The notes under the pieces: model-generated
The model's input: the letters and a program-made list of their open reading frames with translations, nothing else
Database searches by the model: none
What the model was told of the DNA's origin: nothing
Shown here: positions 23,101 through 61,423 of the stretch, one piece after another
Layout of the letters: each line of letters opens with the position of its first letter
Position numbering within the stretch: the first letter of the stretch is position 1
Translations under genes and position numbers: made by a program
DNA from: Lingula anatina
Taxonomy: Eukaryota > Animalia > Brachiopoda
Direction of reading: 5' to 3'
NCBI GenBank assembly: GCA_051362555.1
Contig: CM120648.1
Coordinates: forward strand, 7,808,587 to 7,872,586
DNA length: 64,000 nt

Positions 23101-26100
23101 AGGTTTTTTAAAGGCCACGTTTTCACATTACGACATCTTGATTTTTTTGTATTAATAATCGTTATGTGCACTCCTTTTGCAGATGACACAAAAAAAAAAA
23201 AAAACTGAAGTCAGGAACGATACCATCCATATTTCTATTTAATAAAGTCAAAGATGTACCATCATCACGTACTAGCCGTCTAGCTAAACGCCGCAAAGTA
23301 TCGGATCCGGTGACAGTACCAACAGCTCCTGATTATATTCATGAAGTGGAGGTAAATATAACGCATGATATAATAACATATTTATAAATAAAATGTTTCT
23401 TTATATTTGTAAAATTATCTGTGTAAATACTTGAAACACTAGAGACGGACTAAAGGGGACAAGAGGCAGTCAGATCTGCGTCATTTCTGTCACCGATTTT
23501 ATGTGTTAATTAATACATGAAGTATTTTTCTTTGTGTCATTTATTAACTTATGTATTTATTTTTTGTTATATCCTATACACTGTAAAAACAGTGCTTAGC
23601 ATTTAAATACATACAACATACGTTAAGCACCTATACGCATTTAGAAATATGTGTAAAAGCTAAGCACGTGTAGCTTTTCAAGCGTTTCACAGAAGAAAAT
23701 GCTAGACACGTTGGCAGTGTTACACGTTTAGCTGTGTGCTTAGCTTCACCGGTATATGGATCTATAATAAGTCTATCACAAGCTTAGCACATTGGCTAAG
23801 CACTTCCCCTGCTAAGCGCGTGAGGCTGCTAAACACATGGAGCTGCTATAGGTGTGGAATTCCTAGACGCGTGGAGCTGCTGAACAATACCCTCTACCAA
23901 GGCCGCAGTTCTTGGGGACATTTTTTGCTGAGGCGACATCAGATCAAATTGACTATCTATTTATCTAGAGACATATCTGTGAATATCGTGAAAAATCAAC
24001 CTGTCGCCCTGGTAGAGGGTAGCAGAACAACAGGTTTAGCTTTTCAAGCTTCTTTCAGAAGAAATAAAAATGTTTAACATTCTTAGAAGTGTCGCACTTT
24101 TAGCTATGTGATTAGTTTCACCGGTCCCATAAGTTTATTACAAGGCTCAACAATATGGCTTAACACTTCCCCTTGTAAACGTGTGGAGCTGTTGAAGGCG
24201 TGGAGCAGTCTGCTCGAACGCTTTGTGTCCTTCCTTGCAGTAACGCGTTCTTATTTAAAATAGACCTATTAAAGATGCATACAAAGTCATTTTTTTGCTC
24301 AAAAACCAACCAAATACCAGTATATAGTTTCAAAAAGTATAATTAAGAAAATTGCCAGAAGGCATTGATTAATATTACCCGAAAAATGATATTTGAATGG
24401 ATTTTTCTGTTAGCTTACTATCCTGTATATACATGGGGCAGAAAAGTAGGTCACATAAGTAGGTTAAATTTCTGACCAAAAATTTAAAGAGCAGTCTAAG
24501 GCTCTTTTATGGCTGATCGAGTGATTTATTCAGTTTGTCCCTTTATTTGAGTCGTATAAGAATCTAGTAGAAGTGGTTTATATGTGTTACTGGCAACCCA
24601 CGCTTCACCGATGCTCGGTTCATATGTACCTTTAAGTAATAATCCAAATAACAAATAACGTTTTCACGACGTTATCAGATGGTTACATGCTGGTTATGGT
24701 ATAAAAGAACATTATGGTAACGTTATGGGTGTTTTAATGATGTACAGTAACGTTATAATTTGTAAAAAGATTCGAAGACCTTTCTACAAAATTTTATGAT
24801 ACATGTAACGTCATTTTGTGGAGTTTTATCAGCGTGTTTATAACATTCTGGAAAAACATTATATAATGTTTTGAAAACATTTTTTTATATAAATAACCAA
24901 AACACGTCTTATGCTGTTTGAACTACAGTTAGCGGTTAATTCCAAAATGGGCTTGGGGTTAGTCAGCGACTAGAGAGGTGCGAATTGTAGAATATTCGGA
25001 CTATCGGTACCGAAATAACCAGCATGTGATGAAAGCTTAAATAAAGTATTATAATGAATACCCCACCATCATCCTGATGTTCTATTGTTCATTACTTCCG
25101 GAAAAAATAAATAGATATCAATACCGTAACGCATTTTATCAAAATATGGAGAAAGGTGTTTTAAAGTAAAAATGATAGTTGTTTCGTGCCTTTAGTGAAC
25201 TAGTGAATTTTCCTAACCTGCTTTTCAGAAATACATTCCAATAAACTACCTCGCAAGGTCAGCTAACACAAGGATGAATAAGTCCAGCTGTAAAGATGAT
25301 GGTGGGAAGTCAACGATGTTGACAGTTCACGGTACCCTGTTATAGAAAGAGATAACTATAGCAGTTAAAGGTGACCGTGAGTTCGTGTGTGTGTGTATGT
25401 GTGTGCGCGCGTGCGTGCGCGCGCGTGTGTGTGCGACCAAAACAGTTGAAATCAAAAATTTAAACAAATACACCCTACATTTATAAGCCGTCAAACGCGT
25501 CATACTGCTAAACACAAGCGGGTAACATGTTAAGGAGCTAAGCATGTTAGGAGCTAAACGCGTCGAAAAAGTGAGACAAAACAGGCGCTTAGAAATGCGT
25601 TTAGGAGCTAAACACTGTTTTTACAGTGTAGGTTGAGTGTAGGTTCTCAAGCAGATGAAGCAGTGGAAGACAAACATGAAGACTACCCTGGTGAGAGCCA
25701 AAACGAAAGTACAGCTTCCCAGTGTGATATCACTACACCATCAGACATAAGAGAAAGCATCATGCTGTACCAGAAAAATGCAAAGGCTGTCCAGTATCTA
25801 ACTGGATTTAGTCGTTTTGAACACTTCATGTTGTTTTTCAATTGTCTTGGGCCAGCAGCTCACCACTTGAATTTCAAATGTTTGTCACCAGAGGACCAAT
25901 GTTTTTTGACCATTATGAAACTGAGCCAAGCCTTTCACGATTATTATTTAGCTCTCCGTTTCAAGCTATCGGTAACAACGGTGTCAGAAATAATAAGCAC
26001 ATATTTGGATCAACTTTGTTTTTTTTTCAGTTCAGTGAAATGAACATTTGGCCAGAACGTGACATTGTTGAAGACTATATGTCTGTAAATTTTAAGAAAT

Positions 26101-48424: not shown

Positions 48425-48709
48425 TGACTGCATGGGGTCAATCTTTAGACTCTGATAAACTGCGCTGCTTACATTTGCACTGCTGATGACCTAGTTTGAA
48501 TACTCAAAAGAAAGTGACCTGGTAAAACCCAAGCGTATCGCATCGAAGAGAAATAAAAAAACAGGTGCATTTAAAAGATGAAGACACGGCGCGGCTTATG
48601 CTCGCTAACAAAAAGAGCTCTTCTCACAAAATTCTAAATGCGTATATCTGCAAAAGGACTGTGACTAGAAAGCAGCATTTGACGATAACGAAGCCCTTAA
48701 ACATTCCCG

Positions 48710-51700
48710 ATGATGAATGTTCGTGGTTATGATCACCGACTTCGACCTCAGCACCTGCGTGTGTACGATGAGCCACCGCTGTTACCTTCTTCGCAATCCT
48801 CGGACCAGTCGAGTACGACTGACGGCTTGTACGCGTCCATCCGACCATCCAACATCACAACTGTAGACCTTGAGTCATTTTCCGATCCCAGTGAAAATGG
48901 CAGTGGTCACGACGACAAAATGAAGCTTGGACGACGATGGCGTTGTTACCTCATGGTGATCTTCGCCATGTGTTGTTTACAGATGATAGCCATAGTGGTT
49001 CTGGGTGCTGCTATTCATTTTCATCAACATGATGACGGCAAACCATCCAGGGACACGGCGGCTCTTTTGAGCCAACCAATAGCTATGTCCCAAAGCGATG
49101 TTTTAGAGGATGGGCATGTTGGACCAGCTTCCTTGTGTGTTCCAGGCCTGGATATCAAATACCACAGTGAAAACTGCACCGTACTTAAAATATTGCATCG
49201 GGTAATTGCGACAGTTTATATTTCTTCGGTAGACTCTAGTGTGTTTAACTGGTAAATAATCAATTAAAATCACATTTTAGATGCATGGAACATTAAGAGC
49301 TTGAAAACTACCGGTACATGCTGCAATTATAAGACGTATACATTTATTTAGCGACTCAGTTGCACTTGCAGTTTCCCTGTTATACTGTGTCAAAAACGTT
49401 TTAATTTCATTTTGGGAGTTAATTTAAATTACATTGCCTATAGTTACGTTAGTCTCAATAAAGTCTACCACTACCCAGGAGACCGTTGAGCCTTTACAGT
49501 ATGTATTAACTTACTGCTGTTTATAATTCCAAAGATACCAGTATACAGCTGCTCTAATAATGCCAGAAGCATTCCTTGTTGATAATGTTGATAATATTAC
49601 GCTAACTGATTTTTACGCAGCATTTTTGTTATTATCATTACAATTAAATGGTGATAAACCTGAATTATGCCATCTTTGGTTAAAAAGAAAGAGGAAGTAG
49701 AGTAACACATATCGGTGCGATGGTGACGCATTGCTTTTATATGGTAAATATGGTGGGGTATAGTTTGGTGAAACAGCACGGCGATGACTTTTTATCTATT
49801 TATTTGCAGCTCCTGGAAAAAGTTGACAAAAATCTTCATGCAGCTATGAACGACATGAATAAAACCGCCAATAATGTGATGAATGGTGCGTGCAATGCTT
49901 CCTCTACCATAGAGGGCTTACAGTGTTGGGAAAATAACCTAAACCATGGTCTTAGAATTTGACACCTGAACCACTCTTCTATTCATATTATCACATCGGA
50001 TTCGTTACTTTTTCAACACTTAAAGGTCATTTTTATAAGTTACTTATCTAAAACCATGCTCAGGGGACCCATGACGTATGGATTGTCAAACACAGATGAA
50101 ATGCCAGAATACTCCTCCCCTCCTCCAAAAAAAAAAAAAAAAAAAAGGAAGACAGAAAGAGATAAACGCCCAGCAGAAGAAGAAGAATGCTTCTTTGGTG
50201 TTATAGTCCCTTTAATCTTTGTCCATAGGAAAATAAGTTTACTTTCGTCCAGAAATATGTCCGCGTGAAATATACATGTATATTCAATTGTTTACGCATG
50301 GCATCTTGTCTACTCTTTAACGCGTTTTTCCGTTTTTCTTTATATATTTTTCCTTTATATATATATATATATAAAGCCGTTTAGTAAATAACAACCTTTG
50401 CATATATACTTGTGTACGATAAGTTATTTTAATCGTTGTCAATATCCCTCCTTACAGGTGTCAATAGAAATATGTCGAAGCTGGCTATAAACAGTCGTCT
50501 GCAGGACAGCGCTCTGTACAATATCACGGAGACAGTTGCTACTTTGAATCAGATAATGAATGGTAAATATGTTTGAACGTCTAAACAGGCAATCTAGTTT
50601 TTTCATATTCCCCTAAACCTTTTTCCTTCTTATTTCTATTTCTCTGTAGGTATGATGTCCCTGGACACAATTGATGCCAGTTTTGGCCCTTGGTTTCATA
50701 GACAGAACGAAAATGGTGCTTTGTCTTTATACTATAACTTTTGCTTTCTGTAGAAAATGTCAATATTGAGATAAGTTCCCTTTTTAACTTTCACAACAGA
50801 TTATATTAAATCGGTCCTGAGTGATAACTGTTAAGGTCAACCCCGTGGTTATCTTAAAATGATACCTATATGCTTGTGGAGGTACTGCAAACACTTTCTT
50901 CAAATATGAGTCACCATGATGGAATATATAATCTTAAACGATATTATGCCTGAAAATAATTTATGTAAATATCTGTTTGTAAGTTGTTTAAACAGTTTGC
51001 GGTACATTATTTTTAATACAAATAGAAAGATTAAAGGCAATGTGAAAAATGTACCCGTACGGTACCAGAATAAATCATAAATATGATAATCTGTCATATT
51101 TACGGAGCAGAACTAAAACCTTTATTTTTATAGTATTAATAAAAACCCTTTTCTGATTTGGGGCAATTAAGGGCTTTTTTCCACTCGTTTTGCTTCTTTT
51201 GGGTGAAAAAAATTACAATACAAGCCGATACAACCACATACAACTGGCCCTGTTACATGTATATATATTCCGTTATTCCAGGTCTCCAAGCTAATGTCAT
51301 TGATTTAACGTATCTGTCAAGAAAGGCTGACAACCCTTTAACATTGGCACGCTTGAGAGGCAGGAAAGACAATAACGGTAAGTGTTGTTTTAAATAAGTT
51401 TGACGATAAAGGGTGTAATGTTATACTAAAGGGTTCGTAAGATGTAACATTATTCTCTTCTTTAATTCTGTACATTTGCTTCTCCTTTTAAAATGCCAAC
51501 ATGTACATAGGGTTGTCATTTTAACAAATTCTAAAGGAGACGCTAAATATTTGATTTATTTCAAAGAATCAAAAGCGTGAGAAGTGTTAATGAACAGAAA
51601 ATGGGAGGAGGGCTTTGCCAGAAAAGACAAAAATATGTGAAAGGTGGTTAGCTTTAAAGACAAGCGCGTTGACCCGTTTTTTATAAGGAAGCAGTACATC

Positions 51701-52525
51701 TAATGATATGTGCTGCTTTAGGAACAGCATTTGTTTTCAAGAGGGCTCATATGCCATAAAAAAAGGCTTGCAATACAAACTACTAAATCATGAACAGTAT
51801 TTATGAGAAGAGTCAACTAAACTGCGTCTTCAATAAAATAAAATTTAAAAAAGAGGCGGATCAGAAAAACTGAAAAATAAAAACTTTTTTCTCATCATAC
51901 ACGCTGCATAATTGATATTTTATCTTCAACTAGTTTGTTTCACTGATAACCTTCTATTGTACTTAGATACACGAATGAAACGTGTAAAATACCAACATAA
52001 CTTCTGTGATGTAAAAATGATCCAAATCATTTACTAGCGAAAGAATATGATATAAGAAACGCCAACGGAAGTGAAGTATTGGCTATGCATATGCAGTTAC
52101 ATGTAGAGTCAATTTCAAAGACATTTTATTGTCTTGTTATATATTAGTTTTATATTTTAGTTCTAACGTGGAATGACGGTCGGGATTTAATCCTCCAGGG
52201 AGACGTCCAGTATGAAAACACCGAAAAGTGCCTAAGAGTGAAGCGAGAGGGGCACTTTCTCGTGTACAGCCAGCTGTGTCTATTCGTCCCCAGTACTAAT
52301 TCAGCTGTGCATTTTACTCAATCAATCCAGAGAAGAATTTCAACCGGCTGGCACCGCGTGCTTTATAAGAAACTGAGTGTGCAACGAGGCCATACTGATT
52401 GCACCTATGTGTCAGGAATAGTGCACCTCTACGAAAAAGACTGCGTCAAAGTTGATTTTTCAGATGAAGAGTTTATCATTAACAACCCTCAGTACAATTC
52501 GTTTGGTTTGTACATGCTGGCATGA
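48710..52525 (+). CDS. TNF superfamily ligand, paralog B: type II membrane protein, 377 aa, 5 exons
   Basis: Exons 48710-49201, 49810-49885, 50458-50562, 51282-51377, 52161-52525 (1134 nt, phases 0,1,1,1, all GT-AG). Cytoplasmic tail, TM YLMVIFAMCCLQMIAIVVLGAAI after RRWR, helical stalk, C-terminal TNF homology domain (LRVKREGHFLVYSQL..YVSGIVHL..NSFGLYML). Confidence 0.93.
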
Positions 52526-55675: not shown

Positions 55676-56641
55676 AGCTGTTGCCTTTGAGCTTCCCTTT
55701 CTGTGGCTTGATTCAATAGTCACATATCGCGGCACATGCCTGTCTGAATTAGGCGGACCATCGATCGGTCCGTAGGCCTATAGTTCTTTGTGAAACCGAC
55801 GCCTCCGGTTTTATCTTTGCTGTGTTAGTCACATGCCATGTTTGGTTTGAAGGTGAGCGTTATCATCACTTTACCTTTACACACATGCATATCTGCCCAT
55901 ATAGGCCCTATATATATATAAATATAAACGTGCATTTATATGTGCTATAGGCTACAGTTTAAAGGGAGGGCTAGGCAACGGAGAACATCCAGTGGAAATA
56001 GGCCTACAGTGAATCCGAGTTGGGAGCACTAGAGAGAGTCGTGGTACGGATAAAATTTGTATAACGACTGTAAGATTTCTTAGGTCTATTTTCGACTTGC
56101 TTTTTTAATACTTTAGACGTACTCGTCCTTCAAGAACCCACGCCTTATAAGAAATCGTCAAAAACCGGAAGTAGGCCTACATATGTTTTTTTTTTTTTTT
56201 CTCTATACCTTCCCAGCATGCTTTGTGTAAACATCCTGCGTTGTCTACCTACGTAAATTGACTAGGAAGATTTGGGAACAGAGGCCATGGAGAATCGTGC
56301 ATAGAAAATTTACGATTTGGCAATAACTGACATTAGGCCTATATTTTTTAACAGTAGAACTCTGGACAGGCCATCACAAAGGGAGGGAAGGGCAACGGAA
56401 AAAAATCCAGTGGACATCGAGTGAAACTGAGGTGGATGAACTGGCGAGAGTCGCAGTGCTTAAACACTTTGACAAAATTCTCAGGTCTTTTGCGACTTGT
56501 CATTTTTAATATTATGTACGTAGACTGATTAAGAGGATTTGTGAAAAGAGGCAGAAGCGTGTATGAAATAATTATAAGGTTTGATAATAACTGACATTAT
56601 ATTTTATTACAGTAGGCCAAAAACTCTGGACAGGCCTAAGG

Positions 56642-59600
56642 ATGGTGGATAGATCGTCAAGTCCACCCAGCGCTTCTGTCAGTATCCTTCAATGTCCTCG
56701 ATGCATGAACACATATGATTTGGTGGCACGAGCTCCTAAGCGACTGAGGACTTGCAGACACACTTTCTGTCTCTCGTGCATTAAGCAGAACCATGGGGGC
56801 AATCCGGCTTTGGAACAATCGTGTGGCTTCTGTGATGGCATAGTACAGGGTGACGTGGGGAATACAGAACAGCCAAATAATGAGGCGGTCATCGCGGACC
56901 AAAATCGTGAAATCACGTGTCCATTATGTCACACAAAGACGCCGTGTCGTAACTCCATGTCAGCATTTCAAGATAACCCGTATGTTCAACGAATTCTGTC
57001 GTCGCGGTCACCAACTATTGATTCTTCGGAAATGTCATGTGAGATGTGTGATGCCATGGGGACCGTAAGGGTCCTCTGTCGCACCTGTACACTGTTTTTG
57101 TGTTAGGACTGCCGAGAGAGCCACGTGACGTCACCATTACAGCATGACGACCTCCACGATATATCCCAGTTATCTGGTAATTACGGGGACGGAGTTCCAG
57201 GTGAGTTATGCTACTAGTCAGTGAGGAATGTAACTTTTAAACGACGTTCAATGCCTTTTGATAAAACGGTTGAAAAGTGACAAAATATTTTCGATGAATT
57301 GTCAATATTAAATTTCAATGGTCTTAAAACCATTTTGCGGTTGTACGTGTATGAGTAGGCCCCTAGACCTTTCTTACATGTAACAACCTTGGGATCGAAT
57401 AGCTGCCATTGAGAATGTCGGAATAACCGAACTAAATGCTTGTAATTGGCTTAATTAAGGCATGCGAAACAATTAGACAAGCAAATTTCGCCTCGCAGTC
57501 TTATAGGCCTATATATATTTTTTTCTAAGACACTGCAAATTCTGTACCACTTTTTTATATTTCAAATGACTTAAACACTCCAGGTCTGATTGGTCAAGCC
57601 AGGATAATGTTCCCGAAGGTCCGCTTCTCAGTTGAAGAGCTTAGCCGTCATAAGGAACAGTACATTAGCTCCGACTTCGGCATCGTTGAACTGATTAGAG
57701 ACGTGAGTGACTTTTTTAAGCGAACTGAAAAGAGACTGGTAAACATCGGGGTTGTCGGAGCGACCGGAACGGGAAAGTCGGCTCTGGTGAACGCGCTCCG
57801 AGGCATTGAGATGGATACAGAGGAGGAATACACCCAAGGTGGTCTCATGGTTGCCAGGGTGGGGGACACGGCTTCGAGTGGCTCCGTCTTCCCCACGCCA
57901 TATATGTTACCAAAAGTGAAAGGGTCGTATCTCTGGGATATCCCAGGCTATGGTATGCCCCGCCCTATAAAGGTGTTTCAGCAAATGAATGATGCCGCAG
58001 CTACATCTGGCTCCTCTGTTCAAAGCGACGCTTCGTCTGCCAGTGAGACGCAAGGAGAAGCCAGTTACAATTACGTATCACACCTGGACTGCGTATTACT
58101 GGTGATATCCGAGAGAATACAAGAAACTGACCTCAGCTTACTGCGGTTACTGAAAGAGCACAATTTCCCCAAGAACAGAATCTTCATAGTGCGGAGCAAG
58201 ATTGACAATGCTAAAAAGATCAAACGACTTAACAATTCAGGGGATCATCCGAACCTGCGCCACACCACTCGCGTTTATTTGGACGAGATTCGAAGTGATG
58301 TACACAAGGAGATTGAAATTGTAGCACGTGCCATGGACTCGGAGTTTCTGGACTGGGTTTCAGATTTTTTGAACGCGGGACGGTATTTTCTTGTCTCGAG
58401 TTACGAGATCTCGCGGTATGATATGATGGCGCTCCAGACGGCGATGTCATCAGCGGCAAGGCAAGCCTGCCAAGAGGCTTTAGATTCAGTCGTGCAAAGG
58501 GAAGGGGTCACTCAGATATCAGCCCTGTTCGAGACAGTTTTGCAGAAGAAGAGAGAGAGGTTGGAGAGGCGCATCTTGTCTCATGTTCGAAATGCAGCCA
58601 TTGCGTCGGTGCTTCCGTTGGGAAACATGGTTGTGCAGTCAAGTGAGTTTCTAACCCTTAATCGAGGAAACCAATAAATTGTAGGATGTGGAAATTAACG
58701 TTAAATCTATTGTTTAAGATGCAGAAGTATTGTACATTAATTCACGCACAAAAACAGATTCGCATTATGGGTGTATTTGACTGATGCGGGTTTTTGTGCA
58801 TATGTAACATTTTTTAAAACGGTACTCTCCCTGGGTCTGAAAATCCCCCACAGTAATATTTATATCCTGCAAAGTTTTCTGAAGCGAACGTAGTGTCTTA
58901 ATATAATCCAAATGCACGAACAGGCAGAGCAATGATTTGTATCTCTAGGCAGGGTAGGAGAAAATTACCCATTTCCCTTGAAAATTATCTTTTTCGGTTA
59001 AATCCTGTGAGAGAAAATTGAAAGGATTATATATATATATGTCTTCACCTTTATCCTCATACAAATTATTGTGAAATTAGATAAATATGATAAGTTGGAA
59101 GATAAAAATTGCTTTTGTATAAATTTCTGTTTTACTCTATCTAGATCTGTACCTTTAGATTGTCAAATGTTTGACTGCACATACTCTACTACCACAAAAT
59201 TTGCCCTTTATTACTCAAGCTATTTCATAATTGTAAAATGCTTTTGCAGGCTGGTACAACTTTTTGTCGGCTTGTGAGCGACATTTTGGGGTCTTAAGCA
59301 AGGGGCTGGCAGAGCTGAGCAATATGTGTCAACTACCAAGAGAAGAGCTGCTCGACTTGCTTGGAGGCAATACCGAACCAATAGATGGCGCGACAAGCGA
59401 ATCCTTTAATTCGACCCTGTACTCGGACCTGCCGCGCCAACCAAATTCAAGGCAACAAGATGATCTCATCATAGACAGAGCTTTTCAAGAGGCGGTGGGA
59501 GCCACCACTCACAGCCTCCTCAACGTCGTATTCGGTACGTACCCGGTGATCAATCTGCCAGTCAACGTCGGGCAGACCTATACACTTCTCCATAACACCC

Positions 59601-59728
59601 TAAGACTAGTGTTCACCGCCGGTCATAACGCTTTGGATAAAGCGCTGCAAGTGCGTGTAGCTAAACTGCGAGAGAGGTACAGAAATATGGATCCTTCAGG
59701 ACATGTTGATCGTTCTGTTATTGATTAA
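56642..59728 (+). CDS. RING-HC + B-box fused to an immunity-related (IRG/IIGP-like) GTPase; one in-frame TAG at 57104-57106 (null allele, pseudogene or sequence error)
   Basis: Exons 56642-57200, 57584-58642, 59250-59728 (phase 1,1; 2097 nt). RING CPRC..CRHTFCLSC..CPLC..NPYVQRIL; B-box CEMC..CRTCTLFLC*DCRESH..H; IRG motifs GATGTGKSALVNALRG, LWDIPGYG, FIVRSKID, FLVSSYEISRYD, KKRERLERRI. Confidence 0.85.
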
Positions 59729-61423
59729 GCAGTGACTCGTTAAATGTACACTCCATGAGTTTAAAGAAAATCCCCTAAAAGTTTATTTTTGCCACGGCTG
59801 ATGCAACCTTGCATACGCCTTTAACCCCTTAAATATTTTTTCTGGGGTTACCTGATGTTTATATTTTTTTCATCGGAATCTAGGAAACGGTCGCTGTTAT
59901 ATAATGATTGGCCGGTCCCGTTAAACAAATCAACAATCAAACTTTATAAAACTGATTAAAGGTCTAATCCAAGTGTAGAGAGGAATGGCTAAATGATCCG
60001 TGAGTACGAGAAAACTGCTTATTTCCCGGGAAAATCAATAACACTTAATAAAGATCGCCAAAAGTTCTCTTTTTATTTCAAAAAGATATGTGCACGTCCA
60101 AAAATCCACGGCTCTAATTTCAGTATTATTACAATACGTAACAGGTAATGTGAACCATATCTTTGTTAAATTGATCTATTGTATAGAGAGTATAAAATTG
60201 GAAAGATATTCAATTATTTGCATCCAGAATTATTTCTTCAAAAATGGTTTATTTATTAGCACAGAATAGCATAAGATGTACATATCAATACTTTCATTAA
60301 TGGTCTGATTCATTCAGTAAAGTGGTGTCACACAAAACTATTATTATTATCGCTAAATTATTATTATTATTTTTATTTAACTTGCAACCTGAGATTTGCA
60401 TCATAGTTAAATAAAGTTACTAATGAATAAAAATAGAATGTTAGAAAACACATTAAACAAATTTAAAATAAAAGAATTTAAACATAAGGTCAAAGAAGAA
60501 ATAAAACGTCTATCAGTCATTTTTGAAACTTAATTGTATATCGCCCAGGTTAAAAAGTCACTCGTTGATCGTATGGTTTTAATTTTAGGCCTTCTGAATG
60601 TCTTGGTTCCCGCGATGAATATTTGACATTTCGAAATGACAAAATAAATCTAAATCTGGGCTTACAAAGTCACAAACCCAACTGTCAAGGAAGACTAAGA
60701 TTCTCTCCGAGCCTTCCAGCAGACGCAGAGTCACCTGACTCCTCACGTGACCAACCCTCTTCAGGTTATTAACACTCGATTTCCTGTTGAAGATCGGTGA
60801 TACCCATCGCATCGTCGGATCATTGCAATTTATTTTCTCATCTAAATCTTGTGTGATAACTTGTTTGCTTATTTTAAGTAGCCGACGCCAAGTGACTTAC
60901 GTCTTCACCCAGTTTGTCTGTACGTCTGTCACGAGCTTAAATTACAAAGTTATGGATAAATTTTGATGAAGTTTGGGCTTATTTAAAATTATTAGACTTT
61001 GGTGTTGATGGTGATCTGGGCCCAAGAATTTCTAAACGATCCTGCACCATTCAGACCGTTGCGAGATAAGGCTAAAGACAGTGAACTTTAGCGATCAATG
61101 TCTTCTCAACTATCACTGTTTATCACTGCAGGGCCCTTGGCAGAGGTCTGCACTTCCTTGAGAGTTTTTCTAGTTTACTTTATTCATAATGATCGTATTT
61201 GTCCAGCTGTGCGTTGATTATATCACAGATAATCTGACAAAGAAACGAATTCATCGTGAGCCCGGCGGTCTTAGTATTTTCTTGTCCACGAGACACGTGC
61301 CACGGAGAGTTCATTTCAATACTTCCCTAAATTTCCCGTTCATGATAGCCCCCTATTTCTTCATACGACCTAAGATCTAATATTCCGTTTATTAGATCTT
61401 AGATACGACGTAGATAATATGCG

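Follow-up and report, generated by a model that had tools for sequence, protein, structure and literature searches.

The genome of the brachiopod Lingula anatina contains, on contig CM120648.1 of GenBank assembly GCA_051362555.1, a gene in which a RING module of the TRIM type precedes a GTPase of the IRG family. The DNA analysed, called the window here, is a 64,000-nucleotide (nt) stretch of that contig (positions 7,808,587 to 7,872,586, forward strand) with a G+C content of 36.4% and no N. The gene occupies 56642–59728 on the + strand and was delimited by its reading frame, splice sites and domains. Exon 1 (56642–57200, +) carries the start codon, the RING, an extra CxxC..C cysteine cluster and a B-box-like finger. 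Exon 2 (57584–58642, +) encodes the N-terminal helices, G domain and linker helices of the IRG, and exon 3 (59250–59728, +) encodes a predicted helical C-terminal domain and ends with a TAA stop at 59726–59728. The exons are separated by introns of 383 nt (57201–57583, +) and 607 nt (58643–59249, +), both GT..AG and both in phase 1.

The open stretches of the + strand run from 56591 to 57106, 57529 to 58677 and 59237 to 59728. At the exon boundaries, CCAG/gtgagt of exon 1 is joined to ctccag/GT of exon 2, and TCAA/gtgagt of exon 2 to ttttgcag/GC of exon 3. The splice sites are consensus sites and the frame is kept across both junctions, for which the chance is 1 in 9. Beyond its donor the frame of exon 1 stays open for only five codons, which also favours the splice. 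The joined frame is 2097 nt long, that is 698 codons and TAA. A preliminary description of this DNA had given the same exon positions, splice sites and phase-1 frames, and these are borne out. It had also described the RING exon as spliced in frame to the GTPase; the frame-keeping consensus junctions stand, but an in-frame TAG at 57104–57106 had been overlooked. When the joined protein was compared with the window by tblastn only the self match was found, with no second copy of any exon within the 64 kb. No transmembrane stretch was found in the protein (maximum 19-residue hydropathy 1.22). On balance we lean towards the prediction that the locus encodes one protein of 698 residues, made up of a TRIM-type RING, a B-box-like finger and a complete IRG GTPase without a coiled coil.

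The TAG lies at codon 155, inside the B-box-like finger (57104–57106, +), and is TGG (Trp) in other samples. Variation was examined in Logan contigs of four DNA runs (X1, X3, X6 and X10), from four studies with the same species label, over 55800–60300. At position 57105 the A is replaced by G in X3 (6.59 of 6.59 depth), X6 (70 of 70) and X10 (51.2 of 51.2), giving TGG, whereas X1 keeps the A (0 of 86.4 depth differing). Because X3, X6 and X10 read TGG and only X1 keeps TAG, the window copy is a W155stop nonsense allele of an otherwise open frame, and the stop is polymorphic. The frame is open in three of the four DNA runs, with no other frame break among the differences listed, and the finger with Trp reads C-W-D-C. 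Because of the TAG, the RING/B-box exon of the window does not read through to the GTPase. The reference haplotype is a null or truncated allele: translation would stop within the B-box, and nonsense-mediated decay is a likely fate of the mRNA.

Two other accounts of the TAG were considered and rejected. Stop-codon reassignment or readthrough was set aside because the other samples simply carry TGG, and an assembly error because the X1 contig (depth 86.4) also has A at this position, although X1, in which most words of the stretch occur, may come from the very sample that was assembled. The most divergent run is X10, mostly 90–95% alike to the window. One X10 contig, at depth 17.4 beside intact contigs, passes from 57904 to 58336 and so has a frameshifting deletion of 431 nt in the G domain; the contig may come from another disabling allele, or else from a paralog, of a population that has diverged. 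Between the reference/X1 and X3/X6 haplotypes it is exon 1 that diverges most, with 25 differences in a 1244-nt X3 contig against 8 over 991 nt and 1 over 858 nt for exons 2 and 3. At seven places, one of them the stop, the reference departs from the state common to X3, X6 and X10.

Selective constraint was gauged from a sample of at least 26 single-letter coding differences, those listed between 56646 and 57939, and the counts that follow refer to the differences listed. Of 26 such differences, 16 leave the residue unchanged, 9 alter it and 1 turns the stop into Trp. The synonymous share expected under random change is 0.23–0.28, and the 16 of 25 found here is a clear excess (binomial p 1.4e-5 to 2e-4). 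When the three adjacent changes in codon 28 are counted once, 15 of 23 are synonymous (p 1.8e-5 to 2.4e-4). The excess is found in exon 1 alone (9/16, p 0.008) and in the covered part of exon 2 (7/9, p 0.0017). Among the differences listed, the zinc ligands are untouched except for a synonymous TGT>TGC change at C93. In RNA reads of run X12 a further difference, 59497 G>T in four of four reads, is synonymous by hand translation. The RING exon and the GTPase exon are both coding under purifying selection, and selection on both halves argues against a dead pseudogene.

Within exon 1 the C3HC4 RING reads C18-x2-C21-x15-C37-x-H39-x2-C42-x2-C45-x14-C60-x2-C63 (56693–56830, +) and matches Pfam zf-RING_UBOX with 27.7 bits, just over the cut-off of 25.2. 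The nearest solved RINGs are those of TRIM32 (E 0.0016), then TRIM23 (E 0.017), TRIM56 and TRIM5, and its Atlas neighbours are RING and TRIM3-like clusters, with molluscs the commonest taxon in the nearest RING clusters. The extra cysteine cluster, recognised by reading the sequence, is C92-x2-C95-x5-C101 (CPLCHTKTPC; 56915–56944, +) and is followed by FQDNPYVQRIL. Lying between the RING and the B-box, this segment resembles a second copy of the C-terminal end of a RING; Pfam gave no family match over 56900–57040, which includes the cluster. The finger that follows was recognised by its ligand pattern, C133-x2-C136-x9-C146-x2-C149-x4-C154-x2-C157-x3-H161-x6-H168 (57038–57145, +), and presumably fits the consensus of B-box type 1. 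In the Pfam scan, with the stop codon read as X, its sub-cut-off E-values were 0.0094 for zf-B_box_Trim66, 0.037 for zf-B_box, 0.091 for ANCHR-like_BBOX and 0.0034 for FYVE. Exon 1 had been described as encoding a RING and a B-box; the RING passes the Pfam cut-off and is of the TRIM type, but the B-box stays below the cut-offs.

Pfam gave no TRIM_CC match for a TRIM coiled coil, and only short helices precede the G domain in an AlphaFold2 (AF2) model. The gap from H168, the last B-box ligand, to residue 219, the first in the IIGP profile, is about 50 residues. This agrees with the earlier statement that no coiled coil lies between the RING/B-box and the GTPase. Because no coiled coil is found between H168 and the start of IIGP, the predicted protein is TRIM-like, with RING and B-box, and not a TRIM in the strict sense.

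The GTPase of exon 2 is, from sequence and model comparisons, a firm member of the IRG/IIGP family. Exon 2 matches Pfam IIGP (PF05049) with 63.1 bits against a cut-off of 24 (E 3.3e-17). The 13 best matches among solved sequences are all IRGs (Irgb6, Irgb10, Irga6 and GM4951) and are colinear through the 'FLVS..isrYD' and 'PLG' segments. An IRG profile of 416 columns was built from 28 single-domain IRG relatives, and a 30-sequence alignment, A3, was used for residue conservation. Comparison with the profile by hhalign gave a probability of 99.9% (E 4.6e-34) over columns 15–279. All 11 invariant columns of A3 are kept, including G/G/K/S of G1 and D/P/G of G3. G1, the P-loop, is GATGTGKS at residues 245–252 (57757–57780, +), with its G, G, K and S invariant in A3. 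G3 is DIPG (57937–57948, +), with D, P and G invariant, and is followed by Tyr at the place of Gln61 in Ras. A large hydrophobic residue at the place equivalent to Gln61 is described for IRGs in section 14 of Bekpen 2005. G4 is SKID (58195–58206, +), with Ser for the usual Thr or Asn; it aligns with 'SKID/TKID' of IRGs, and its D207 is nearly invariant.

The AF2 model of exon 2 (pLDDT, the predicted local distance difference test, 81.3) has the IRG fold, with the G domain between N-terminal and linker helices. In a Foldseek search of the PDB with this model, ranks 1–36 were all IRG chains (Irga6, Irgb10, Irgb6 and GM4951; best E 7.3e-11), with modest TM-scores of 0.35–0.43. The Atlas places exon 2 among IIGP clusters. 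It is a divergent member, about 25% identical to the aligned relatives. Among 1.84 billion representative proteins, the best of 237 matches had E 1.1e-20 and 36% identity over about 70 residues, and the named top matches are IRGs of fish, lungfish, coelacanth and lizard. A word-index search with exon 2 returned one protein each at longer and near lengths, a gecko IIGP5-like protein and an Armillaria protein.

Exon 3 (158 aa) takes the place of the C-terminal helical domain of IRGs, columns 280–416 of the profile. It had no Pfam match, and hhalign aligned it to the IRG profile with a probability of only 4.4%. Weak similarity appears in colinear order: hmmsearch gave 2.8 bits at the colinear end, and in the first 35 residues 'FGV..L..L....EEL' lines up weakly with 'FGLD..SL..LA....EL' near residue 285 of several relatives. 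The AF2 model of exon 3 alone has helices only (pLDDT 44.7, too low for a fold search). These weak similarities tie exon 3, as a putative homolog, to IRG C-termini. The preliminary description had seen a full IRG-like GTPase with its helical C-terminus; the IIGP assignment holds firmly, but exon 3 lacks a Pfam match.

Transcription was examined in four polyA or oligo-dT RNA runs (X12, X15, X18 and X19), with about 6–26% of each run read. X12 contributed 7 reads, X18 6 and X19 4, of which 16 lie on the three exons and one, partial, on the repeat in intron 2. Exon 1 is covered by X18 and X19 reads and exon 3 by six X12 and about two X19 reads, showing that low-level polyA RNA is present on all three exons. 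In X15 all 23 reads fall on a repeat at 59992–60024, and 21 of them are only partly placed. In X19, depths of 0.34, 0.15, 1.31 and 0.19 in bins of 151 nt correspond to 51, 23, 198 and 29 nt, which two 150-nt reads would fit. Because 23 nt is the exact distance from 59250 to the end of the bin at 59272, one X19 read appears to be spliced over intron 2, from 58642 to 59250. Most X18 and X19 reads are 95–99% alike to the window, as would fit an origin in the non-reference (TGG) haplotype. We consider it probable that the RING and GTPase exons lie on a single fusion transcript.

To place this architecture, 52 of 150 listed relatives, picked for high rank or an N-terminal extension, were scanned with Pfam. 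Most of the long relatives among the 52 are tandem IRGs with two or three IIGP stretches. An N-terminal RING/B-box occurs in 1 of the 152 IIGP relatives compared, and a RING pattern in 2 of 152. The architecture is thus not common, which the preliminary description had named as a condition that would refute it. The single case is LOC120536813, a predicted protein of 990 aa with RING, B-box, TRIM coiled coil (PF25600, residues 205–346), AIG1 and IIGP domains, found in two bichir genera (XP_039621247 of Polypterus senegalus and XP_051790382 of Erpetoichthys calabaricus) and listed among the relatives as P0046. As at the locus described here, a single predicted chain carries a RING and B-box at its N-terminus and an IIGP GTPase at its C-terminus. 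The bichir protein differs in having a complete TRIM coiled coil and, behind the TRIM module and ahead of IIGP, an additional GTPase of the AIG1/GIMAP type. It is a predicted gene product and, judging by the names listed, has not been characterised. It shows no detectable resemblance to exon 1, so the two fusions probably arose independently. Other partners of IIGP were a C-terminal RING in a marine protist transcript (P0114), SH3 in a Dreissena protein (P0131) and RVT_1 (P0132). A word-index search with exon 1 found no homolog. In the literature searched, no RING or TRIM module is described in fusion with an IRG/IIGP domain. The RING-IRG architecture is rare and not unique, since a similar union is already present in public predictions.

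The mouse IRGs Irga6/IIGP1, Irgb6/TGTP2, Irgb10 and GM4951 share with exon 2 the colinear order of N-terminal helices, G domain and linker helices, and likewise have a P-loop of the GKS type, a G3 of the form DxPG with a large hydrophobic residue, and a G4 of the form xKID. The C-terminal domain of the Lingula protein has about the right length for an IRG and is predicted to be helical. Unlike in the mouse proteins, an intron interrupts the Lingula open reading frame (ORF) at profile column 279, about 30 residues rich in Ser are inserted after G3, and a RING and B-box-like finger stand in place of an N-terminal Gly2 for myristoylation. In the mouse, the loading of IRGs onto pathogen vacuoles is reported to depend on GTP, and ubiquitin is then added by the separate ligases TRAF6 and TRIM21.

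IRG units expressed only as the 3' part of in-frame tandem transcripts are described for mouse Irgb2-b1 and Irgb5-b4 and zebrafish irgg-irgq1 by Bekpen 2005, which also states that, as of then, there was no unambiguous IRG outside vertebrates. In those tandem transcripts the upstream unit is another IRG, whereas here it is a RING/B-box module. In view of the tandem transcripts and the bichir RING/B-box/AIG1/IIGP protein, the preliminary description's statement that vertebrate IRGs are stand-alone GTPases does not hold strictly.

Other chains unite a RING with a GTPase. TRIM23, described as a TRIM unique in having both E3 and GTPase activity, acts in cell-autonomous defence. Like the Lingula gene, TRIM23 (ARD1) joins a RING/B-box E3 module to a C-terminal GTPase in one chain, but its GTPase belongs to the ARF family, and the Pfam Arf profile gave only E 0.096 here (12.6 bits against a cut-off of 22.3). 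TRIM23 has a coiled coil. In RNF112/ZNF179, which the preliminary description had also named, a RING precedes a large GTPase domain of the GBP/atlastin type; a B-box is not known in it. The type of GTPase differs here as well, as Pfam GBP gave E 0.14 (11.7 bits against 21.1) and IIGP passes. The Lingula locus is a real, lineage-specific variant of the IRG family and of RING-GTPase chimeras, its function inferred. A natural single-chain RING-IRG would extend bona fide IRGs, with new domain partners, to a lineage far from vertebrate IRGs.

Several observations weigh against a single RING-IRG protein. The synonymous count comes from the at least 26 listed differences, a sample. The null allele of the reference, together with the X10 contig lacking 431 nt, indicates that the gene can be lost. 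The junction 57200>57584, which had been named as the one to look for in RNA, was found in no read or contig, and no joint of any kind reached the threshold for listing, at a very low depth of four to seven reads per run; the single transcript is what we infer. X18 reads at about 57040–57187 and 57722–57871 could be mates of each other or belong to separate fragments, the run having four first and two second mates. Exon 2 has an ATG of its own (Met195, 57607–57609, +), about 95 nt downstream of a TATA-like run, the TATATATA/T-run at 57510–57525, and intron 1 also contains ATTAAA at 57307; because of these elements separate RING-only and IRG-only transcripts are possible. The B-box falls under every Pfam cut-off (zf-B_box 14.6 bits against 24.1, zf-B_box_Trim66 16.1 against 27). 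In the RING, Arg20 takes a place held by Ile, Val or Leu in most active RINGs (CP-I-C), and the last Cys is followed by Asp64 instead of Arg or Lys. We take the first position to be the one that usually contacts the E2 and the second to be that of the linchpin Arg/Lys, both of which would matter for E2 binding; E3 activity of the RING is uncertain. Neither among the 152 relatives nor by word search was a protein found with the same architecture and similarity to exon 1 or exon 3, and irrespective of architecture none of the 152 resembles either exon.

The internal start and the intron-1 elements would fit two neighbouring genes, namely a RING/B-box protein of about 191 residues ending in a retained intron 1 and a stand-alone IRG initiated at Met195 from an internal promoter. 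The splice frame match would then be coincidence, or would serve a minor isoform only, and the locus would be an ordinary RING gene beside a divergent IRG gene. In keeping with two genes, the ATG at 57607 has A at −3, the exon-1 frame closes five codons beyond the donor if intron 1 is unspliced, no read crosses the junction, X12 reads lie on exon 3 only among the exons, and in mammals, according to Bekpen 2005, the IRG ORF occupies a single long exon preceded by untranslated ones. Yet the donor CAG/gtgagt and the pyrimidine-tract acceptor are both strong and phase-matched, intron 1 has no RNA depth in any of the four runs (at a depth too low to decide), indels alter the putative TATA run from sample to sample, and in-frame splicing of an IRG unit to an upstream gene has precedents, such as Irgb2-b1 (Bekpen 2005). 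We regard two separate genes as doubtful. A decaying pseudogene, a dying member of a fast-turnover immune family whose open frame elsewhere is a remnant, could account for the TAG at codon 155 in the window and X1, the frameshifting X10 contig, the very low RNA depth and the lack of a close ortholog among the representative proteins. It is very unlikely, for three of the four DNA runs read TGG without another listed frame break, the synonymous excess is strong in exon 1 and in exon 2, the invariant IRG residues and the zinc ligands of RING and B-box are all intact, and polyA RNA is present. The fusion could also be real and its RING not a ligase. Stabilised by zinc, the RING/B-box would then mediate dimerisation or bind a partner, and so control or localise the IRG GTPase, comparable to the regulation of partner IRGs that is ascribed to IRGQ and to tandem IRG units. 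Arg20 and Asp64, at the presumed E2-contact and linchpin positions, and the score barely over the Pfam cut-off would suit such a module. All eight RING ligands are nonetheless kept and constrained, C93 changing only synonymously, and the closest solved RINGs belong to active TRIM ligases, making a non-ligase RING unlikely.

For the single RING-IRG protein a mechanism can be proposed. The IRG part, with G1, G3 and G4 intact, would bind GTP and, as mouse IRGs do, assemble into oligomers on the membrane that it targets, for instance that of a pathogen vacuole. TRIM ligases need their RINGs brought together for activity. The IRG assembly would bring the N-terminal RINGs close, taking over the clustering role of the TRIM coiled coil and higher-order assembly, and the clustered RINGs would switch on discharge of ubiquitin from the E2, placing a ubiquitin tag on the bound surface or on the protein itself. 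By analogy with mouse IRGs and TRIM ligases, the protein may thus be a self-contained effector that finds and tags its target, in which IRG oligomerisation on the pathogen membrane replaces the coiled coil and target binding switches on the ligase; the segregating null alleles (W155stop and the 431-nt deletion) would be in keeping with a locus caught in an arms race between host and pathogen. We offer the effector, for which the preliminary description had likewise supposed membrane targeting and ubiquitination by a single chain, and the arms race together as one tentative proposal. If correct, this would be the first fusion of the IRG and E3 steps of vacuole marking, in one invertebrate-type protein. 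The coupling of IRG marking and ubiquitin addition in mice is still under study, and a natural single-chain RING-IRG would make it testable by asking whether GTP-dependent assembly activates the RING. The segregating stop provides a natural knockout for association with infection outcome.

Variation among samples extends beyond the exons. The TATATATA/T-run of intron 1 carries indels among samples. The 5' flank (56220–56640, +) contains a tandem duplication of about 262 nt, whose copies are about 67% alike where alignable and whose presence varies among samples. An X6 contig joins 56248 to 56510, and X3 has a loose end at 56248 that continues into the second copy, so a one-copy allele exists. 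Two short high-copy repeats, in intron 2 (58838–58873, +) and in the 3' flank (59990–60034), are marked by peaks of depth and numerous loose ends in each of the four DNA runs.

The preliminary description had placed the gene next to a TNF cassette, and TNF-domain exons were recovered in the window. TNF-homology-domain exons lie on the + strand at 727–1176 (Pfam E 1.1e-9) and 52148–52525 (E 1.9e-10). The ORF 48701–49255, which has a hydrophobic stretch, probably belongs to the second TNF gene as its 5' exon and would code for the cytoplasmic tail and the membrane anchor. A transposon remnant lies between the TNF genes, an ORF at 25612–26043 (+) with a Harbinger-type transposase domain, HTH_Tnp_4 (E 1.6e-8).

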